From: Promethearchaeota archaeon | GTDB taxonomy: Archaea > Asgardarchaeota > Lokiarchaeia > Sigyniarchaeales > SOKP01 | Reading direction: 5' to 3' | Assembly (NCBI GenBank): GCA_011364925.1 | Contig: RDOA01000050.1 | Coordinates: forward strand, 1 to 26,775 | DNA length: 26,775 bases | The notes under the pieces: model-generated | The model's input: the letters and a program-made list of their open reading frames with translations, nothing else | Databases searched by the model: none | What the model was told of the DNA's origin: nothing | Translations under genes and position numbers: made by a program | Shown: positions 1 to 9,103 of the stretch, piece by piece | Numbering within the stretch: the first letter of the stretch is position 1 | Layout: every line of letters begins with the position of its first letter

Positions 1-1
1 T

Positions 2-751
2 CATGTTAATAGACTTACCAAGGAAATGGCGGAAGCTTCCGACGACTACGGCTTACCGTTTATTAAGGAGTTTTTAGGTGAGAAAACGGGAATTCCTCAG
101 ATGAGAACCATTCCTATCAATGCCGCTATTACCCACGAAAATAATGTAATGACTTATGATAACGCACGAGAAATTCTCGAAAATGTAAAAGGCCCCTACG
201 CAGTCTCACCTTGTGTTTGTGTTCAATCGATGGAACTCATTGGAAAAAAGTGCAAACATGATATGATTGAAAGATGTATGACGAATAGTCAAAGCTACAT
301 CGATCGCGGAGATGCTCGAGAAATTACCAAAGCGGAAGCATTTGAGATCTTACAAAAAGCTGAAGAAAAAGGACTAGTTATTCAGCCGGGAAATACTAAA
401 GATTCGGGAGGGTTTTGTCTGTGCTGCGAATGTTGTTGTGGAATTCTTCATTACGGTAAATTACTTGATAAACCTGCTCAGGTATTCGCAACAAATTATT
501 TTTCAGAAGTCAATGAGGAAGAATGTACTGGATGTGGAACATGTGAAGATGTTTGTCCGATGGACGCTATAGTTGTAAACGAGGTCTCCCATGTAATAAA
601 AGATCGGTGCATTGGATGCGGGGTGTGCGTTTCTAAGTGTCCTTCGAACGCAATAGTTCTTCGAGATAAAGAAACGAGAATTGTTCCTCCAGATGACGGA
701 GCAGAATTAATAGCGAAAATTACAGAAAGAAAAAATGAGTTAAATAGATGA
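2..751 (+). CDS. 4Fe-4S dicluster-domain protein (5'-partial; frame is open to the window edge)
   Basis: Two CxxCxxCxxxCP motifs (CTGCGTCEDVCP, CIGCGVCVSKCP), plus CVC and CLCCECCC. The frame is open from nt 2 (HVNRLTKEM...), so the ATG at 26 is probably internal. Confidence 0.9.
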   Translation, partial: HVNRLTKEMAEASDDYGLPFIKEFLGEKTGIPQMRTIPINAAITHENNVMTYDNAREILENVKGPYAVSPCVCVQSMELIGKKCKHDMIERCMTNSQSYIDRGDAREITKAEAFEILQKAEEKGLVIQPGNTKDSGGFCLCCECCCGILHYGKLLDKPAQVFATNYFSEVNEEECTGCGTCEDVCPMDAIVVNEVSHVIKDRCIGCGVCVSKCPSNAIVLRDKETRIVPPDDGAELIAKITERKNELNR

Positions 752-927
752 ATAATGAAGAGTATTCCGACGATGAATTAGAAGAAGAAATCGAAAAAGC
801 CCTCAAGAATAATCAGAATAAACCTAATGTTTTCAGAATCATCAAAAACGAAAAAAATGCGCTAGATAGGAAGGATAAAAGAGTTAAAGCTAAAATTAAC
901 TGGAATAAACAGAAAAATGAAAAATAA
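748..927 (+). CDS. Small 59-aa hypothetical protein (MNNEEYSDDELEEEIEKALK...KINWNKQKNEK)
   Basis: ATG 748-750 overlaps the upstream TGA 749-751 (ATGA coupling); TAA at 925-927. Acidic N-terminus and basic C-terminus. Absent from the ORF track, whose shortest entries are 60 aa. Confidence 0.55.
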   Translation: MNNEEYSDDELEEEIEKALKNNQNKPNVFRIIKNEKNALDRKDKRVKAKINWNKQKNEK

Positions 928-1014
928 ATTTCTTTAATTTAAAATCACTCAATTCGAGTAACTTTTACTTTGTTCTTTGAAAGATTTAAGAATATTTTCT
1001 GAAATGGCAACAAT

Positions 1015-1383
1015 TCAAGTAATTTTTTTCTTTTGAAATGATTTTTTATATGCCCATTCCATTAGAGGTAACATGGCATCCCTAACTTCAATCCCATCTT
1101 GAGTTAATGTATATTCAACCCGTGGTGGAATTTCAGCAAAAATTTCTTTCTTAATGAGTCCAGCTTCAGTGAGTTCTTTTAACCTATCACTTAATGTTTT
1201 AGGACTTATCCCAGTTAATTCTTTCATGAGTTGATTGAATCTGATTCTTTTATGATTACTAATCGTACCAATTATCACCAAAGCCCATTTTTTACTAAGA
1301 ATATTAATGATGCCTTCAATTGGACAAAAACAAAAACAACTTCCCTCCTTTTTATTACAGGGAACCTCAGTTTCCTTTTGAAT
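1015..1383 (-). CDS. HxlR (DUF24) winged-helix transcriptional regulator with Cys-rich N-terminus
   Basis: RFNQL...ISPKTLSDRLKEL...EIPPRVEYTLT is the HxlR signature. The frame continues upstream of the tracked start (1281) through CNKKEGSCFCFCPIEGIINILSKKWAL to a TGA at 1390-1392. Start uncertain: ATT at 1383 lies 6 nt after GGTGA. Confidence 0.9.
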   Translation of the reverse strand: MQKETEVPCNKKEGSCFCFCPIEGIINILSKKWALVIIGTISNHKRIRFNQLMKELTGISPKTLSDRLKELTEAGLIKKEIFAEIPPRVEYTLTQDGIEVRDAMLPLMEWAYKKSFQKKKIT

Positions 1384-1436
1384 AATAAATCACCATCTAT
1401 ATATTCACTATATACTTATATACTTTATAATTTAAA

Positions 1437-1474
1437 TACTTTGTTATTGATAGTTACTATAAATAATAAAGTAA
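1437..1474. promoter_or_regulatory. Candidate HxlR operator: overlapping inverted repeats in the divergent intergenic region
   Basis: TTACT-N11-AGTAA (1454-1474), TACT-N11-AGTT (1437-1455) and ATAGT-T-ACTAT (1450-1460). Confidence 0.45.
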
Positions 1475-1490
1475 AGGAGGTAAAACTATC

Positions 1491-1637
1491 ATGAGAAATT
1501 CAAAATTAAAATCCGAAAAAGAAACTCAAAATCAGGAAGATTTTTGTGCTTGTGGGTGTTCTGACCAGATTAATGAATTAAGTTCAGAAAATCCATTGTT
1601 AAGTAAAAAAGTTAACAGAAGAAATTCATGCTGTTAA
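1491..1637 (+). CDS. Small Cys-rich 48-aa peptide (MRNSKLKSEKETQNQEDFCACGCSDQINELSSENPLLSKKVNRRNSCC), putative metal/metalloid binder
   Basis: GGAGGT at 1476-1481, 9 nt before the ATG. CxCxC motif and terminal CC. TAA is immediately followed by an oligo-T tract. Confidence 0.8.
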   Translation: MRNSKLKSEKETQNQEDFCACGCSDQINELSSENPLLSKKVNRRNSCC

Positions 1638-1650
1638 TTTCTTTTTTTTT
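1638..1650 (+). terminator. Archaeal oligo-T terminator
   Basis: TTTCTTTTTTTTT directly after the stop of 1491..1637. Confidence 0.65.
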
Positions 1651-1785
1651 ATAATTCGATTACCTTGATTTAATTTGGGGTTATAAAGAAAATGGAAAAA
1701 TAAAGAGAAAAACAATTCGAGTAAGACTGTTTATTAGATATAATATAAAAAGCAAAATGTTCTTGAGAAGTAATATAAAACAAAT

Positions 1786-1799
1786 AAAAAAAAGAAAAA
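1786..1799 (-). terminator. Oligo-T terminator closing the minus-strand small-ORF array
   Basis: Minus strand reads TTTTTCTTTTTTTT downstream of the last small ORF. Confidence 0.45.
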
Positions 1800-1826
1800 T
1801 CATTTATTGGGATTTAGGGGGTTTAA

Positions 1827-1883
1827 TTATACAATTCGGAACTGATTGCTCAATCCTACCCTTCTCGTTCCTTTCTTTCTCAC
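1827..1883 (-). CDS. Possible 18-aa peptide (MRKKGTRRVGLSNQFRIV), may be degenerate
   Basis: GTG start embedded in the SD-like GAGGTGA (1886-1880); TAA at 1829-1827. SD-to-start geometry is poor. Confidence 0.2.
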   Translation of the reverse strand: MRKKGTRRVGLSNQFRIV

Positions 1884-1974
1884 CTCATTCTTGTAGTTAA
1901 ATCGTAAGTTTTTGGGTTTTTTTGGTTAAATTTGGAATTTTATATCGCGTAAAAAATTGTCAAATGAACGAAAA

Positions 1975-2046
1975 TTAAAATTCTAAACGCTCGAACTCAT
2001 TACCAGAGTTCTGAATTATTATCCATCTTTTTTCTGGGTTATCCAC
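1975..2046 (-). CDS. 23-aa peptide MDNPEKRWIIIQNSGNEFERLEF
   Basis: AAAAGGAGGT (2064-2055) is 8 nt before GTG at 2046; TAA at 1977-1975. Resembles the neighbouring peptide. Confidence 0.65.
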   Translation of the reverse strand: MDNPEKRWIIIQNSGNEFERLEF

Positions 2047-2093
2047 TTTTTCTTACCTCCTTTTTCATATGAGTATTTCTCTACTAAAAATTA

Positions 2094-2171
2094 TTAAAAC
2101 CGGAGCGTTACGTAATTTTCGCGATCAACGCTCAATTCATACTTTAGTTTTAACTTCTCAGATTCATTCAT
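2094..2171 (-). CDS. 25-aa peptide MNESEKLKLKYELSVDRENYVTLRF
   Basis: AAAAGGAGGT (2189-2180) is 8 nt before ATG at 2171; TAA at 2096-2094. Confidence 0.7.
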   Translation of the reverse strand: MNESEKLKLKYELSVDRENYVTLRF

Positions 2172-2261
2172 ATATTTCAACCTCCTTTTGCTATTCCTCT
2201 ATCTCTTTATCATTGGTATTAGGATTTTTTCCTGGTAATGAAACTTTAAAAAAATTTAAAT

Positions 2262-2534
2262 TTAAAAATTAGTTCGATAATTTCTATATAAACTCGCGTC
2301 GATATTGCTTTTTACCGATTTAATGTTTTTAAGTTCCTCGGCATATCTCGCGTTTAATTTAGCTTTATTGAATAGTTTTCTAAGTTTTTTACTAATTGGT
2401 TGTGATTTATCTCTCATTACTTTTTTCATTGCCACTTCCGCGACCTGCACCTGAGGCCTGCGCACCTCAGGTGCCTGGGTCTGGAAAGGAATCTGGCTAC
2501 TGGCGTTGGCACTTCTTTCTTTTGCTTGGGCCAT
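2262..2534 (-). CDS. Small basic hypothetical protein (90 aa; alternative start at ATG 2429)
   Basis: Open frame with SD-like AAGTGA upstream. Lys/Arg-rich C-terminal half ending ...YRNYRTNF. The 5' part overlaps a GC-rich hairpin. Confidence 0.7.
   Translation of the reverse strand: MAQAKERSANASSQIPFQTQAPEVRRPQVQVAEVAMKKVMRDKSQPISKKLRKLFNKAKLNARYAEELKNIKSVKSNIDASLYRNYRTNF
2431..2511. other. GC-rich stem-loop, candidate structured RNA element
   Basis: Perfect 10-bp stem GCACCTGAGG (2447-2456) / CCTCAGGTGC (2465-2474) with an 8-nt loop, extended by GACC/GGTC, TTCC/GGAA and GCCA/TGGC. 52 of 80 nt in 2431-2510 are G+C, against very AT-rich flanks. Confidence 0.7.
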
Positions 2535-2606
2535 CCTTTTTTATCACTTCTTTTATCTTAATTTTTTTTCTTTTTTTGTTGTTAATATTAGTTAGTTCAA
2601 TTGTTC

Positions 2607-2673
2607 TTTTATAGTTTTACTAAACTAAGTTCGAACGAACTTCGAACTTCATCACGAACAAAAAACTTAAATA
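2607..2673. promoter_or_regulatory. Back-to-back archaeal promoters with central palindromic operator
   Basis: Minus-strand TATA CTATAAAA (2614-2607). Plus-strand A-rich BRE followed by CTTAAATA (2666-2673), ending 22 nt before ATG 2696 (leaderless geometry). Inverted repeats AAGTTCGAA-N5-TTCGAACTT (2627-2649) and TAGTTT-N4-AAACTA (2612-2627). Confidence 0.65.
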
Positions 2674-2695
2674 GCCTTGATGTAGTTACATAATT

Positions 2696-5662
2696 ATGAG
2701 TATACCTAAATACCCTCCAAAAGAGATAATCACTCCTATGAAAATAAGTAAAGATTATGAACAGATTATACTTTGGATGCTCTACAACAATAACCAGTGT
2801 ACGTGGTCTGATCTTAAATCAGATCCAGTAAATATCAGTAACGCAACTTTGTCCAAGTATCTCAACATCTTAACTAATATCGGTTTCATTGAGAAAGAGA
2901 AAAAGGGTACCTATATAATTACTCCTGAAGGTCGTAAACATTATACCGAGCTTCAAGTTAAAGATTTGCACGAAGAAGTATTAAATTATCCTCCTGAAAA
3001 GATTAAAAGAAAAAGGGATTACGAAGATTGTATACTATGGATGCTTTATAATAATGAGTATTGCAAATGGTCAGATTTTCTTGAGGATCCACTTAATATT
3101 AATCAATCTTCATTATCAAAAAGTCTGAATGCTTTACAACAAAAAGATTTTATTGAAAAGGATAATCGTGAATATCACATCACGAATTCTGGAGAATTAG
3201 AATATTTCAATATGTTAAAAAAGTATGATTTAGATCGACAATCGATATTAGACGAAGAAACGAAGAGAGTCGAACTTATTACTGATAAAGTAGCGCAATT
3301 TTTTGATGAGTACAAGATCACTGATGATGGTGTGAAGTATAGGTTTTTAAATATGATAATGAGACTCGATTATACTAAGTTCGAAGTAACTTTATCGGAC
3401 GAATTAGATTTCAATAAAATTTTGCTCTTTTTATCAATTAATCACCCTGATAATTATCCCAATCACATTACTCCTAGAGATTTTGCTTTAAAGTACGATA
3501 TAAGTGTGACGACATTAAATTTTTTTATAGAGAAAATCGTGGAAGACAAGCTTTATGCGATAAAATTCTTCAAATTAAATGTCGGCGATAAATTTACTTA
3601 TTACATCCAAGCTGAGGAGCGATTAGAGAAAATTCTAAATGTGATTATCGAAGATTATATTAGAAAATTCACATATTTAAGCAAGTTTCGGAAAAAGGGA
3701 AGTGCTCAAGATCTAGTGCTTGATATTAATAAATTACTTGAGGATATAACAAACGATATTTGTAGTAAGTTATTTCACGAGGAATTAAAACCTTCTCTTA
3801 AAATGTTTCTACCCGAGTATATCGAGCATCTAGCCTATAAATTTGAAACAGAGAAGAGCTTAATTGACCAAACGGACAAAATTAAAGGTATTGCGTTTCA
3901 AAATGTATTTGAAGTTATTCAAAGTTTTGGAACGACGGAAGCGGCGAGTACTGTAAGTAAACCAATAGAAAGCGACTCTTTTTACTTTTTGCATAATAGA
4001 ATTTTTGATACCCTGGAGATAATATATTTGTCAAAATTAGATTTCTTCCGTATGCCTGAGTTTAAGAACGATTATTTCCCCATGAATACTGATCTCTTAA
4101 CTGCAATAGAGGATAAGTTGTCGAAAGGAAGTTTATTGAAAGTTAATGATTTGCTTACAAATAATATTGAGAATTTGAATGAAATTGAATTGATGATTCT
4201 GAGAGACATAATTTATACAAATAATGGAGAATTCGATGAATCAATAAAACTGGATCAGAAAATCATAGATAAATATCCTAATGAATATGTTGGATATCTC
4301 TTTCAATCGATAACTTATTTCTTAATGGGGAGGCTCAAAGATGCTATAGATATCGTTGATGCGGGGTTGAGTAAATCATCGAATATTCTTTTGACTGTTC
4401 AAAAAGCGCAAATTCTTATTAATTACGATCACGATAAAGCTGTAAAAATCATTGACGAAAAATTTGAAGATAATTCTGATAATTTTGCTTTGCTTCGAAC
4501 AAAATTCCTGACGGTGATGACTGATAAAGAGTGTTGTATAGGAGCAATAGATAAGCCTTTAGAATTGATAAATTCACTAATAGATTCCTATCCAAAAGAT
4601 TCCGAGCTTCTAATTTTAAAAGGTTTATTGTTTATAGTAAACCACAAATATAAGGAAGCAAAAAATTGGATAAAAGACAACATAAAACCTAACGTTTTTG
4701 AAGATAATCCTAGAATTGACATTGCTGCGTATTTAGTTTTAGCGTATTCTTACTTAGCGAGAGGGAAATTTGAGAAAGCTTTAAATATGGGTAAGAAAGC
4801 GGAATTTCACTATCCTAATCACCCACTTTCGCATATCATTAATGGTTTTATTCATGGTTTCAATCTTGTTTACGATTTTAATTCGGATAAAGCTAATCCC
4901 GAGCTTTTTAAAGAGGGATTTAGGAGAGCAATATCCCTACAACAAAGTGAAAAAAAATTGTCTAGGTACTATCAATTATACAGCTACATTCTTAACGAGA
5001 CTGATGGATTGGAAGAAGCATTAAAAGCAATTAATAAGGCGATTGAGTTAAGCCCAGAACATTACGATATATCTCAAACAAAAGCTCACTTATATTTAAC
5101 TTTCCCAGACAAAATAGGAGACTCATTTAAATTTTATGAAGAATTACACGAAAAATTCCCCCATGAAGATAGGGAGATACGTCAATTGACTTCTTTCTCT
5201 TACTATGCTATCGGAAAAGTAAAAGAGGGAGCAGACCTTCTTGAAGAGAGTCTTAAACTATACCCTGATTCAATAGGTATGTATAATAACTTAGCGATAT
5301 TTAAGAGTTCATTAGGAAAGTTTGAGGAGGCTATAGAGTTAATAGAAAAAGCGATTACTATAAATCCAACTGAAGCAAATTTATTCGATACCTACGGTGA
5401 AGTATTGATGTATGCAAAACGGTATGAAGATGCTATAGTAAAATTTACTCAAGCGTTAGAAATGAATCCTGTAGGATGGTTCGCGTTCCATACTTTTCTT
5501 AAACTAGCTAAATGTTATAAAGCTCTAGGTATGGAGGATAAATCTGACACCTGCTTCAATAAAGCAAAAGAATTAACGGAAAAAGTTATCCCTGGAAAAC
5601 GAAAGATCTATATTGATAAATTAGAAGAGAGTATTGATGAACTAGGCAAAGTGCCTATTTAA
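2696..5662 (+). CDS. Tandem winged-helix (MarR/ArsR-like) + C-terminal TPR protein, putative transcriptional regulator
   Basis: Two homologous wHTH units (YPP..DYE..ILWMLYNN..C.WSD...P.NI....LSK.LN.L....FIEK....Y.IT..G...Y), a probable third HTH (ITPRDFALKYDISVTTLNFFIEK), and many TPRs (e.g. MYNNLAIFKSSLGKFEEAIELIEKAITINP). Confidence 0.9.
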   Translation: MSIPKYPPKEIITPMKISKDYEQIILWMLYNNNQCTWSDLKSDPVNISNATLSKYLNILTNIGFIEKEKKGTYIITPEGRKHYTELQVKDLHEEVLNYPPEKIKRKRDYEDCILWMLYNNEYCKWSDFLEDPLNINQSSLSKSLNALQQKDFIEKDNREYHITNSGELEYFNMLKKYDLDRQSILDEETKRVELITDKVAQFFDEYKITDDGVKYRFLNMIMRLDYTKFEVTLSDELDFNKILLFLSINHPDNYPNHITPRDFALKYDISVTTLNFFIEKIVEDKLYAIKFFKLNVGDKFTYYIQAEERLEKILNVIIEDYIRKFTYLSKFRKKGSAQDLVLDINKLLEDITNDICSKLFHEELKPSLKMFLPEYIEHLAYKFETEKSLIDQTDKIKGIAFQNVFEVIQSFGTTEAASTVSKPIESDSFYFLHNRIFDTLEIIYLSKLDFFRMPEFKNDYFPMNTDLLTAIEDKLSKGSLLKVNDLLTNNIENLNEIELMILRDIIYTNNGEFDESIKLDQKIIDKYPNEYVGYLFQSITYFLMGRLKDAIDIVDAGLSKSSNILLTVQKAQILINYDHDKAVKIIDEKFEDNSDNFALLRTKFLTVMTDKECCIGAIDKPLELINSLIDSYPKDSELLILKGLLFIVNHKYKEAKNWIKDNIKPNVFEDNPRIDIAAYLVLAYSYLARGKFEKALNMGKKAEFHYPNHPLSHIINGFIHGFNLVYDFNSDKANPELFKEGFRRAISLQQSEKKLSRYYQLYSYILNETDGLEEALKAINKAIELSPEHYDISQTKAHLYLTFPDKIGDSFKFYEELHEKFPHEDREIRQLTSFSYYAIGKVKEGADLLEESLKLYPDSIGMYNNLAIFKSSLGKFEEAIELIEKAITINPTEANLFDTYGEVLMYAKRYEDAIVKFTQALEMNPVGWFAFHTFLKLAKCYKALGMEDKSDTCFNKAKELTEKVIPGKRKIYIDKLEESIDELGKVPI
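2711..3205 (+). repeat. Intragenic duplication of the wHTH module (about 2711-2944 and 2987-3205)
   Basis: Near-identical motifs ILWMLYNN, WSD, LSK, FIEK and Y.IT in both units. Confidence 0.85.
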
Positions 5663-5687
5663 TTCTTAATCAGAGATTGCTATTAAC

Positions 5688-5715
5688 AGAAATCAATTGA
5701 TTTCTTTCTTTTTTT
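5688..5715 (+). terminator. 18-bp perfect palindrome followed by oligo-T (terminator between convergent genes)
   Basis: AGAAATCAATTGATTTCT (5688-5705) is self-complementary and is followed by TTCTTTTTTT. Confidence 0.6.
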
Positions 5716-5776
5716 ATAATATTATTCTACAAGTTTTATTAAGGTCTTCAAAATTAAAGATTAAAATGGATTCTAT

Positions 5777-6757
5777 TTACCTTGAGATGTCGCGTTTTTT
5801 GAAGATAAAATATCCTAAAAGAATTAATGCAGCTGCAATGGTTAATATAAGAATTAGGGACCCTAAAGGAGAATAGTAATCGTTACGAGTAAATGTAACC
5901 TCCCAGGTGTCAGGATCAAATTCTTGAGTATATAACCCAAACCCGTAAAGAAAGTACAACATACTTTCAGAAACACCCCCCGAAATGATATTTAAAATTC
6001 CAATATAGCTATTAAACAAATGATATGCTAAGTCGAAGTGATATAACTGAAACTGGACATATATTGGAACTTCGTTATCGCCTAAATACATATACATAAA
6101 TAATGGTCGAAAAGTCATAAGTATGAAAAATGTAATGATAATAATTAATAAGGGTACTAATATTGCATTTCGCGTCTTTTTAAAAATACAAGAAAAACCA
6201 AAAGCAATGCTTTGAAAAAAGAATTGGACAATCAGAGAAAAAAGAAGATTTATTACGAAGAACTCTGCAATACCGTCAAAAGTATATTTTAGTGGAGCAA
6301 TTAAAGTTATTAGGGACAACGATGAAATGTTTAAAAAGAAACCGAAACATGTGAGTGCTAAATATTTAGTGATTAAAATTTCTCCTCTTGAAATTGGCTT
6401 GCTTATGAGTGTTAACATAGTTCCAGATTTGATTTCCTCAGCAATAAGGGGAGCACCAATTACAGTTAATATAATTGGAAATATTAGACTGTAAGTGTAG
6501 AAACCATATATTAAACCTAAATAATCGTTTAACGAACTTAAATACAACTCATAACCAGGGGGAATCATAAGAATAGCAATTAAAGGTCCCAAAATCATGA
6601 GAATAAAAGAAATAATAAATTTATGTATTTTAAACATGTCTTTAAATAGGGTTTTTTTAAAAAGTATGATGCTCGGTGTTGTGATAATCCCTTTTGTTCC
6701 AGATCTCACAAAATCCGTACTCAGCATATTAATTGTGTCTTCACTTTTGGAAGCCAT
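5777..6757 (-). CDS. ABC-2 type exporter permease
   Basis: Multiple TM helices, the IAEEIKSGTMLTLISKPISRGEILITKY motif and terminal FKKRDI. Start at 6757 (MASKS) preferred over 6772; overlaps the end of the ATPase gene. Confidence 0.9.
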   Translation of the reverse strand: MASKSEDTINMLSTDFVRSGTKGIITTPSIILFKKTLFKDMFKIHKFIISFILMILGPLIAILMIPPGYELYLSSLNDYLGLIYGFYTYSLIFPIILTVIGAPLIAEEIKSGTMLTLISKPISRGEILITKYLALTCFGFFLNISSLSLITLIAPLKYTFDGIAEFFVINLLFSLIVQFFFQSIAFGFSCIFKKTRNAILVPLLIIIITFFILMTFRPLFMYMYLGDNEVPIYVQFQLYHFDLAYHLFNSYIGILNIISGGVSESMLYFLYGFGLYTQEFDPDTWEVTFTRNDYYSPLGSLILILTIAAALILLGYFIFKKRDISR

Positions 6758-7730
6758 TTCTTTTTCCCTCATCTTTATCTATTATATCTAAAAACACATC
6801 TTGAAGGCTTGATTCGGGCTGATAAAAGGATTTTAGAATTAGTCCCTTTTCAACGATTAATTTAGGTATTTCTTTTTGAAATTGTTCGATGTCACCAGTG
6901 TTTACATAAATACTTTTCTCTTTTTCATCAATCCAAGCATTAGTAATGATTTCTAACCCTTTAATCAAGGATAAGAATACTTCATTAGCGTTAGTATCGA
7001 TTACATAAAGATTAGTGGATTTCGAGAACCATTTTTTCGCATTTTGGACGGAATCAGTTAAAATTATTCTACCCTTATTAATGATGGTGACTTTATCACA
7101 CATTTGTTCAACTTCAGAAAGAACATGACTTGAAACAAAAATACTCATGTTTTTGGAGATTTTTCGCACGTAATCAATTATTTTTTTTCTTACTAAGGGA
7201 TCTAAGTTGCTAGTGGGTTCATCTAAAATCAAGAGCTGCGGGTCGTGTATAAGTCCCGCTGCTAATCCAATTTTTTGTTTCATACCCATAGAATAAGTTT
7301 TTATTTTCCGATCTTTATCTTCCGTTAAATCAAAAAATTTTAGTAATTCAAGAGCCTTTTGTTCTGCTATACTTTTTGGAATCAAGTTCAAGCGTGCTAA
7401 ATAAGTCAAATATTCTAACCCTGAAAGTTTTTCGTAAAATGCAGGGTCTTGAGGAAGAAAACCAATAAATTTCCTAGCTTCTTTAGTACCCGCCTTTTTA
7501 CTTTTTAGATAAGCAGTTCCTTCCGTTATTGAAATGGCTCCAATTAACATGTTAATTGTTGAAGTCTTTCCTGCACCATTTGGACCTAAAAACCCATGGA
7601 CTCCTGATTCCATCGTGAAATCAATTCCTCTAACTGCAACAACTTTTTTTTCCCCAGTTCCGTATACTTTTGTGAGGTTATTGGTCCAAATATAATAATC
7701 GTCACGATTATCAAGGGGTGTGGAGTTCAT
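6741..7730 (-). CDS. ABC-2 type exporter ATP-binding protein
   Basis: Walker A GPNGAGKT, signature YSMGMKQ, Walker B LLILDEP, H-loop SSH. Confidence 0.95.
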   Translation of the reverse strand: MNSTPLDNRDDYYIWTNNLTKVYGTGEKKVVAVRGIDFTMESGVHGFLGPNGAGKTSTINMLIGAISITEGTAYLKSKKAGTKEARKFIGFLPQDPAFYEKLSGLEYLTYLARLNLIPKSIAEQKALELLKFFDLTEDKDRKIKTYSMGMKQKIGLAAGLIHDPQLLILDEPTSNLDPLVRKKIIDYVRKISKNMSIFVSSHVLSEVEQMCDKVTIINKGRIILTDSVQNAKKWFSKSTNLYVIDTNANEVFLSLIKGLEIITNAWIDEKEKSIYVNTGDIEQFQKEIPKLIVEKGLILKSFYQPESSLQDVFLDIIDKDEGKRNGFQK

Positions 7731-7924: not shown

Positions 7925-9103
7925 TTAAGAACTACTTTGCTTCTGATGTTCTTTAACGAGTTTTATCAAGTCCGCTTTTCTATATGAAGAGAGCACTTCA
8001 ATGCTGTTTTCATTGCAATATTCCTGAAGTTGTTCTACAGTCCACTTGTCATAATCAATCCACTTATCGACACTTTTTTGAGGGGATCCCTTTAAAATGA
8101 GGTCAATGATTTGCGCTTTCCTATAAGACGACGGAACATGAATATTATTTTTTTTACAGAATAATTTTAAATTACTCACCGTCCAGGTGCTATAGTCAAT
8201 TTCATCTTTTATTTCACTCACTTTTCTCACAAGTTTAGGCGCTGATAGGTTCTGGAGTATTTCAATTCCCTCAATTTTTCCCGTGGTATCGTTGGTATAC
8301 AGTCTAATTGTTCTATCGACAAGTTCAATTGGTCCTTTTGGAATTGAGTTCACAGGCTCCCATTTGGTTTCTTCTACTTCTTCTCCAAACACTTTTGTTG
8401 TTTTGACTGCTGCTCCATATAATTGGAAGGTTCCTATAAGCAAATTCTGCCGTTTGAAATTATCAGGAACTTCATTATTCACGATTTTCTCGATTAAATG
8501 TTTATTGTTAGCTTTAGGAGATATAGTAGGTGTAGTATCCAGAGTTGATATTGTAGATATGGAAGGTTGTTTTGGTTCCGATGAAATTTCCTTGTCCACT
8601 TTTCTTCTAATTGCTGGAGGTTCAACTATATCATCAATAATAGGAGGAGGACCGTTCCACGTGTGGATTTCTTTGTCGCTAATCTCAGCTACTTCTCTAA
8701 TCGTAGTCGCGTGTATCTGTTTAAACTCGTCAGAATCCCTATCTATGAATTTAGGGGGTTCAACCGCAGTGAATCCAAAAGCTCTCATAAATTCATCGGG
8801 TTCGTCTCCTTGATCGATGGATATGATCTTACAACGATGAAAGTGCGCTTTATTTACCAAATTGTTTTGTAATTCTGCAGCGATGCGAGACGAGATGAAT
8901 TTTTTCCTTACATGGGAGTTTACTCCTTTCCATATGAATATTCTTCTTAAATCTTCTTTGACGATCACTAAAACCTGATTAGAATCTAACACATTTTGAC
9001 CATTCTCAGCACGAAATTCATCTTCAGTTAAGTTTAAGTTAACTTTTTCTCCAGTGCTTTCCAAACCATAGACCATGAAGTTCTCGTAAGTTTCAGCCAT
9101 CAT
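7925..9103 (-). CDS. Asgard gelsolin-like protein (gelsolin domain + linker + X-like domain) with two C-terminal helix-extension-helix (Rho_N/SAP/LEM-like) repeats
   Basis: LDSNQVLVIV...IFIWKG..S..RKKF......A...IDQGDEPDEF matches the gelsolin/villin core pattern. Followed by a Pro/Ser/Thr linker, a beta-rich domain, and two IDY..WTV..L...C..N.I.V.SSYRKA..I.L repeats. Confidence 0.8.
   Translation of the reverse strand: MMAETYENFMVYGLESTGEKVNLNLTEDEFRAENGQNVLDSNQVLVIVKEDLRRIFIWKGVNSHVRKKFISSRIAAELQNNLVNKAHFHRCKIISIDQGDEPDEFMRAFGFTAVEPPKFIDRDSDEFKQIHATTIREVAEISDKEIHTWNGPPPIIDDIVEPPAIRRKVDKEISSEPKQPSISTISTLDTTPTISPKANNKHLIEKIVNNEVPDNFKRQNLLIGTFQLYGAAVKTTKVFGEEVEETKWEPVNSIPKGPIELVDRTIRLYTNDTTGKIEGIEILQNLSAPKLVRKVSEIKDEIDYSTWTVSNLKLFCKKNNIHVPSSYRKAQIIDLILKGSPQKSVDKWIDYDKWTVEQLQEYCNENSIEVLSSYRKADLIKLVKEHQKQSSS
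7949..8200 (-). repeat. Two 37-aa tandem repeats (8090-8200 and 7949-8059)
   Basis: IDYSTWTVSNLKLFCKKNNIHVPSSYRKAQIIDLILK versus IDYDKWTVEQLQEYCNENSIEVLSSYRKADLIKLVKE. Confidence 0.85.

Follow-up and report, generated by a model that had tools for sequence, protein, structure and literature searches.

We analysed a stretch of 26,775 nucleotides (nt) from a Promethearchaeota archaeon (contig RDOA01000050.1 of assembly GCA_011364925.1), hereafter called the window, which constitutes one whole contig of a 3.9-Mb genome with 32% G+C. The system of interest consists of a plus-strand gene (2696–5662) encoding a regulator of 988 amino acids (aa), with tandem winged helix–turn–helix domains (wHTHs) and tetratricopeptide repeats (TPRs), and of a divergent minus-strand series comprising a gene for a 90-aa protein (2262–2534) and two micro-genes of 25 and 23 codons, here named B (2094–2171) and C (1975–2046). 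Comparison with related genomes firmly indicates that the regulator, the small genes and a palindrome located between them form a conserved and co-inherited unit of Lokiarchaeia, and we consider this module very probably to be real and functionally linked. The chances are evenly balanced that the whole is best explained as a self-contained regulator/micro-protein module, with the small proteins serving as intracellular partners. The original prediction, made from the letters of the window, had described the 90-, 25- and 23-aa open reading frames (ORFs) ending in Phe, a divergent promoter of roughly 160 nt shared with a 988-aa wHTH-TPR protein, and a palindrome between two TATA boxes. All of these were found to be present, to an extent well beyond chance, with the ORFs conserved in orthologous loci, two wHTHs and the TPRs confirmed in the regulator, the promoter region measuring 161 nt (2535–2695) and the palindrome, at 2627–2649, conserved across species. 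What the window adds is another species, the exclusion of an adjacent exporter, the anatomy of the micro-genes as autonomous units and a conserved hairpin.

Conservation and linkage of the regulator and the small genes

Full-length orthologues of the regulator, with 64–69% identity, occur in at least 11 other species of the genus. The three small ORFs, or else two to three paralogous genes of 22–29 codons, are retained divergently upstream of the orthologous regulator in 12 species of the genus. Wherever such an orthologous locus included upstream DNA, the opposite strand carried a gene of ≈89–99 codons with the pattern MAQA...APEV..PQV...NF, followed by two or three micro-ORFs of 22–29 codons that belong to three paralogous types, three being present in most relatives and two being intact here. 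The small ORFs that the original prediction looked for beside homologous regulators are thus indeed found there. Synteny together with conservation at the peptide level was seen in eight loci as well as in the genomes G042, G056, G051 and G055. In two genomes (G005 and G056) the 90-aa gene has been lost, with the peptides retained directly beside the regulator.

A profile built from the peptides gave matches in 15 of the 42 genomes of the genus that were searched. Among the 14 matches that had not been used for training, 10 precede a divergently read family regulator at a distance of under 1 kb (G042, G056, G051, two sites in G055, G053 and G017), with three of the sites adjoining paralogues of 824–841 aa; the others were two extra copies in the same region of G008 and two matches on small fragments where placement was impossible. 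Every placeable peptide match hence adjoined a family regulator. When the peptides of the window were left out of the profile, the ORF at 1975–2046 was still the top-ranking one of the genome's 147,717 stop-to-stop frames (E 0.014), and the profile search revealed no additional micro-gene copies elsewhere in the source genome.

More distant members of the family also have small genes as neighbours. A deeper paralogue (G014:C8) is accompanied by three peptides and lacks the 90-aa gene, while other paralogues of ≈990 aa and metagenomic members with 44–48% identity have a divergent gene for 71–82 aa and/or peptides, the former often together with small transmembrane (TM) proteins or small Zn-ribbon ORFs.

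Some further features were noted at these deeper loci. Five of them (L051, L052 and L054–L056, from G019, G017, G001, G022 and G018, respectively), having a ≈990-aa paralogue and a divergent gene for 71–76 aa, carry behind the latter a gene for a protein of 110–125 aa whose C-terminal half is hydrophobic, in some cases along with a hydrophobic ORF of 42 aa; the products might possibly be membrane partners lacking in the orthogroup of the window. At two other loci (L057:1806–1964 and L058, ≈1890–2200) the peptides are replaced by Zn-ribbon-like ORFs of 32–52 codons with a CxxC...CxxC pattern, and a conserved gene for 214–220 aa directly follows the regulator in L057, L058 and L060.

Architecture of the regulator and its family

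The regulator gave Pfam matches to HTH_45, HTH_34 and MarR as well as to many TPR families, and AlphaFold2 models of the entire protein and of residues 1–430 had predicted local distance difference test (pLDDT) scores of ≈80 and 79, respectively. In these models a first wHTH (≈20–90) and a second (≈108–177) are followed by a long helix, a third wHTH-like unit of helices and a β-hairpin (≈211–305), a helical region (310–410) and a disordered linker (412–434), whereupon a TPR solenoid of ≈550 aa, modelled with high confidence, takes up residues 435–983. Structure searches with residues 14–97 and 105–183 each returned MarR, PadR, BldR and Sso10a proteins with Z-scores of 9–10.3, superposing with root-mean-square deviations of 1.8–3.6 Å over 69–86 residues, and among the matched structures were the DNA-bound complexes of MarR, PadR, QsrR and AspA. 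Both N-terminal domains have the three-helix bundle and β-hairpin wing that make up the MarR/PadR-type fold. The NCBIfam matches to Sso10a, Sta1 and Lrs14 were all below threshold, and for residues 180–440 no Pfam or NCBIfam family came above its cut-off. The nearest Foldseek matches of the solenoid were TTC7B, OGT, TPR subunits of APC/C (TM-scores by target 0.45–0.49) and Tom71; no chain of the RRNPP family was found among the best 50 matches, although absence from such a list does not exclude homology. Three Asn residues (N864, N865 and N895) are invariant at helix-A positions of the last TPRs and would be expected to face the concave side of the solenoid.

The family of the regulator has at least 733 members, all with Asgard labels and mostly from Lokiarchaeota/Promethearchaeota. 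Its hallmark is a conserved N-terminus of ≈420 residues, including the two wHTHs, a DRQSIL helix and the third wHTH-like unit, with TPRs thereafter; across residues 1–430, the protein of the window shares 45–92% identity with 35 members, 56 columns being invariant. The source genome encodes four full-length regulator paralogues in addition to fragments, and genomes of the genus have 5–25 matches each. A PADLOC analysis of the window gave just generic wHTH and ABC-ATPase matches.

As an observation on the paralogues, three of the four shorter full-length proteins (637–842 aa) in the source genome (G000) adjoin genes for small Ras/Rab-like GTPases, located at C48:78458–79012, C56:15096–15656 and C23:12006–12554. 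An aromatic C-terminus common to these GTPases was considered and rejected, their C-termini not being aromatic.

The small genes and their products

As judged from sequence comparison, the three ORFs, of 90, 25 and 23 codons, represent real genes that are conserved as peptides. Micro-gene B starts with ATG, ends with LRF and has a Shine–Dalgarno sequence GGAGGT at 2180–2185, 8 nt before the ATG; read from an upstream TTG it would encode 28 aa. Micro-gene C starts with GTG, ends with LEF and has the same GGAGGT at 2055–2060, also 8 nt before its start. The product of the latter is the window's representative of the type C pattern (M.K.EKR.IIIKNAGY.P.RL.F), which is kept in at least eight loci with synonymous changes, whereas the 25-mer is the most divergent copy of the type B pattern (M+R.E...FNP..L..RF), found at the same place in seven orthologous loci and matched by micro-gene B with an E-value of 3.5e-4 against the family profile. 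The third paralogous type, D, has the pattern MKRKE..ILNPTGYN..LRF. A minus-strand ORF of 18 codons at 1827–1883 is probably, on slender sequence evidence, a decayed third micro-gene of this type: it occupies the position of the D-type gene in six other species, its GAGGT overlaps the GTG start, and both the ATTTAACCAAAA box upstream of it and a basic N-terminus have been kept.

The micro-genes look like autonomous transcription units, since each has its own TATA-like box ≈50–60 nt upstream, followed by an A-rich leader, and most have a run of 7–10 T within ≈10 nt after the stop codon. A scan for sigma-70 promoters and terminators was uninformative, as would be the case for an archaeon. Most of the 20 micro-ORFs first collected have GAGGT 7–9 nt before the start, with a few variants, and throughout the set the start and stop codons are kept, insertions and deletions come in multiples of three and the peptide pattern stays constant while third codon positions vary. 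The median ratio of nonsynonymous to synonymous substitution rates (dN/dS) was 0.38 for type C, 0.64 for type B and 0.47 for type D.

The 90-aa protein (MAQA...APEV..PQV...YRNYRTNF, thus ending in TNF) has syntenic homologues with 37–57% identity in six species of the genus and with up to 93% in metagenomes, while a search of 1.84 billion proteins gave no more than 13 representatives. For its gene as a whole the dN/dS is 0.45, falling to 0.33 over the C-terminal half, and insertions and deletions again come in multiples of three. No Pfam or NCBIfam family passed its cut-off for either the peptides or the 90-aa protein, the only Pfam match of the latter being a weak, sub-threshold one to DUF2382 (E 0.035, 14.8 bits versus a cut-off of 23).

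With regard to the properties of the peptides, 21 of 24 end with F or Y, which compares to 14% of size-matched random ORFs, and position −3 is hydrophobic in all except one. These hydrophobic-x-aromatic C-termini are suggestive, at the level of sequence, of ligand tails, although only suggestive. The peptides have a net charge between −2 and +5, their maximum Kyte–Doolittle hydropathy, KD(11), is 1.37, and the longest hydrophobic run is five residues. As the original prediction had cautioned, they have no signal sequence; neither a Sec signal nor a hydrophobic body as in the SHP peptides of the Rgg/SHP systems was found in them.

The divergent promoter region and its palindrome

Within the shared intergenic region, a 23-bp palindrome (AAGTTCGAA-CGAAC-TTCGAACTT, 2627–2649) lies between two TATA-like boxes and constitutes a putative operator. 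Its core is kept in all eight aligned orthologues amid variable AT-rich DNA and was seen in further species as well, and the palindrome has a single occurrence in the 3.9-Mb genome; a further conserved half-site, GCGAA(C/T), is found at ≈2654–2659. The box of the regulator gene (CTTAAATAG, plus strand, 2666–2674) is kept in all eight orthologous intergenic regions and is centred ≈26 nt before the ATG, from which we infer that the regulator mRNA may be leaderless. On the minus strand, a conserved TATAGTTT block at ≈2606–2619 presumably acts as the TATA-like box of the 90-aa gene. In archaea, a site upstream of the TATA box is the usual position for an activator rather than for a repressor, as with Ptr2/Lrp-type factors. 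Since the palindrome is located upstream of both boxes, the regulator would more likely activate or coordinate the two promoters than block them. Copies of the palindrome were looked for upstream of the micro-genes, and none were found.

A conserved hairpin within the 90-aa gene

A feature newly recognised here, beyond those of the original prediction, is a hairpin on the minus strand at 2447–2474, spanning codons 21–29 of the 90-aa gene and having an 11-bp stem (GCACCUGAGGU / GCCUCAGGUGC) and a 6-nt loop. Across eight aligned sequences hardly any change is seen in the stem, in contrast to the variable loop, and one C-to-U change in the stem leaves a G–U pair when read as sense RNA. Codons within the stem are frozen and G-ending in an AT-rich genome, whereas other conserved residues of the protein use two or three synonymous codons. 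The hairpin palindrome occurs once in the genome, and the element was not found in the searched loci that lack the 90-aa gene. Taken together, the frozen codons, the uniqueness and the absence without the 90-aa gene point to an element acting at the nucleic-acid level, most likely an RNA hairpin.

One additional position of the same gene was noted, with the conserved Ala of codon 62 (alignment column 74) being encoded by GCG in nine of nine sequences despite the AT-rich genome, which may reflect a further nucleotide-level constraint outside the hairpin.

Proposed mechanism and alternative explanations

In the mechanism that we propose, the regulator would bind the palindrome through its winged helices and, when bound, would activate or coordinate both divergent promoters. 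The 90-aa protein and the peptides, all of which lack an export signal, would be intracellular partners of the TPR solenoid and would feed back on DNA binding by the regulator, with the invariant hairpin in the mRNA for the 90-aa protein adding a second, RNA-level control point. We put intracellular partnership forward as a proposal because no hydrophobic run exceeds five residues in the small proteins, because of the aromatic C-termini with their hydrophobic −3 positions, and because the fold of the 90-aa protein was itself uncertain in a complex prediction, in which the TPR domain (residues 430–988, alignment of 32 rows) was paired with that protein (15 rows), with a score of 0.00 that speaks neither for nor against binding. 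That the small proteins bind the TPR domain is a tentative element of the proposal, having somewhat less than an even chance on the features of their sequences. A more far-reaching version, which we regard as rather unlikely, would be a peptide-sensing Asgard transcription circuit independent of RRNPP, with the hydrophobic-x-aromatic tails of the 22–29-residue peptides and of the 90-aa protein docking in the eukaryote-like TPR solenoid to switch transcription and perhaps with an intercellular role for some of the peptides.

A module of this kind would be of some consequence. For archaeal transcription factors, no peptide ligand made by the ribosome is known to us, and how Asgard archaea regulate their genes has, to our knowledge, hardly been explored. 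With one regulator, one genome-unique palindrome, one hairpin and a few peptides that can be synthesised, the module offers a compact and testable case, and since the family has expanded to the numbers given above within the genus, understanding of one member may explain many. The conserved genes of ≈23 codons in these genomes have, furthermore, been missed by annotation pipelines.

Several observations weigh against the proposed mechanism. The dN/dS values of 0.4–0.6 correspond to moderate constraint only. An aromatic C-terminus is not shared by all, as paralogous loci hold peptides ending with K or R as well as a 79-aa homologue that ends with GVN. The palindrome is found at the first promoter only, while the micro-genes seem to have promoters of their own without any copy thereof. 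Finally, the peptide profile, which is of limited sensitivity, matched in just 15 of the 42 genomes; as it missed a sequence from its own training set (G018), the lack of matches in the other 27 genomes means little.

The main rival explanation is that the small genes are a mere regulated output, with the TPR solenoid sensing some other signal or protein and the functions of the small proteins, such as the binding of different targets in the cell, being unrelated to it. The divergent promoter with its palindrome speaks for local control and is silent with regard to the identity of a ligand, the shorter paralogues of the family adjoin other cargo (Ras-like GTPases and proteins of 180–250 aa), and the small partners differ between subfamilies, as with the Zn-ribbon ORFs and small TM proteins, all of which would fit with such an output. 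It would, however, leave unexplained both why the peptides are retained beside the regulator after loss of the 90-aa gene and why two unrelated-looking families of small proteins share a hydrophobic-x-aromatic C-terminus, and we judge it to be possible, albeit improbable.

True cell–cell signalling of the RRNPP type, whereby the peptides would be exported, re-imported and bound by the TPR receptor in an archaeal form of quorum sensing, is suggested by a layout similar to that of Rgg/SHP, having short peptide genes divergent from an HTH-TPR regulator. The SHP peptides are likewise without Sec signals, their exporter being the ABC transporter PptAB (PMC5167397, PMC7564271), and in the source genome a pair of ABC-2 transporter genes does adjoin the regulator. 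That pair is, however, missing in all seven orthologous loci where it could be looked for, the peptides are charged with short hydrophobic runs and low hydropathy, and no conserved importer or protease gene was found in the neighbourhood of the orthologous loci. Extracellular signalling is unlikely because neither an export signal nor a conserved transporter was found, and cell–cell signalling of the full RRNPP type appears highly improbable. Least credible of all is that the micro-ORFs are untranslated and incidental to small non-coding RNA genes or promoter/terminator cassettes, for although a promoter-like box and an oligo-T terminator belong to each unit, as they do to such RNA genes, and the dN/dS is only 0.4–0.6, the GAGGT at 7–9 nt in most of the 20 units, the kept start and stop codons, the indels in multiples of three and the varying third positions under a conserved peptide pattern all speak for translation, micro-gene C yields a weak consensus RNA fold (−6 kcal/mol), which does not favour that reading, and an Rfam search over positions 1–6000 gave nothing relevant.

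Comparison with known systems

The closest resemblance in layout is to the bacterial RRNPP(A) systems, especially Rgg/SHP (PMC5167397, PMC7564271, PMC12445099), which share with the module a DNA-binding domain fused to a TPR domain, adjacent short peptide genes divergent from the regulator, a palindrome in the shared promoter region and peptides without a Sec signal. As in RRNPP(A), the candidate cognate peptide gene is adjacent, being located divergently within 1 kb upstream wherever placement was possible. The RRNPP(A) regulators have, in contrast, an XRE/Cro-type HTH in place of the two to three tandem MarR/PadR-type winged helices found here, their pro-peptides carry export signals of the Sec type or an SHP-type hydrophobic body and mature extracellularly, and they belong to Bacillota with their phages and plasmids, whereas the host here is an Asgard archaeon. 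The Asgard solenoid, of ≈550 aa, is furthermore like the long TPR proteins of eukaryotic type, the Asgard peptides are charged rather than hydrophobic, and no genes for an exporter, protease or Opp system are conserved nearby. Compared to Rgg/SHP, several autonomous micro-genes and a 90-aa gene are present, and the binding of peptide to the TPR domain, which in RRNPP(A) receptors switches the activity of the regulator, is a prediction only. Because HTH type, peptide type and host all differ, the regulator is not a member of RRNPP, and the original prediction's description of an independently built analogue is fair with regard to architecture, given the wHTH in place of an XRE-type HTH and the Asgard host.

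Within archaea, the closest functional precedent by analogy is sP26 of Methanosarcina mazei, a 23-aa intracellular effector that targets glutamine synthetase (doi 10.1101/2020.05.06.080432; for the small proteome, PMC11456600). It resembles the peptides studied here in being the product of a translated archaeal gene of ≈23 codons that acts in the cell by binding a larger protein, which for our peptides is a proposal, and differs in that its target is an enzyme, its gene is not located beside a regulator and there is no sequence similarity. The wHTH domains, in turn, resemble the MarR, PadR, BldR, Lrs14 and Sso10a proteins, which are, however, small homodimers with one wHTH per chain, in contrast to the tandem wHTHs fused to a TPR domain in the Asgard regulator. 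Several TPR receptors read C-terminal tails, including Hop and Tom70/71 with EEVD, PEX5 with SKL and APC3/Cdc27 with an IR tail. The module shares with them a long TPR solenoid, a likeness checked at the level of fold only, and candidate partners with conserved extreme C-termini, while those receptors are not transcription factors. In the literature searched for an archaeal or Asgard HTH-TPR/peptide system, nothing relevant and no published description was found.

Neighbouring genes

Convergently downstream of the regulator lie the genes for an ABC-2 permease (5777–6772) and the ABC ATPase of the pair (6741–7730). The original prediction was right in placing an ABC-2 exporter there; as a part of the system it had to be rejected, since the pair is absent from all seven orthologous loci with downstream DNA. 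In each of these a gelsolin/SAP gene directly follows the regulator, and the pair in the window thus appears to be a private insertion between these two genes. The ATPase gave PADLOC matches of the mad3/AriA type, which probably reflect generic ABC similarity. The gelsolin/SAP gene of the window, at 7925–9103, has a weak gelsolin-domain match, below the Pfam cut-off, together with two C-terminal SAP/HeH/Rho_N-like repeats.

On the other side, the genes past the micro-genes are not conserved. A gene for a 4Fe-4S protein and a 59-codon ORF overlapping its stop codon are located at 26–927 of the window, and both are also found upstream on a metagenomic contig (L059:409–1667) where the regulator is 60% identical, so that the 59-codon ORF is probably a real gene.

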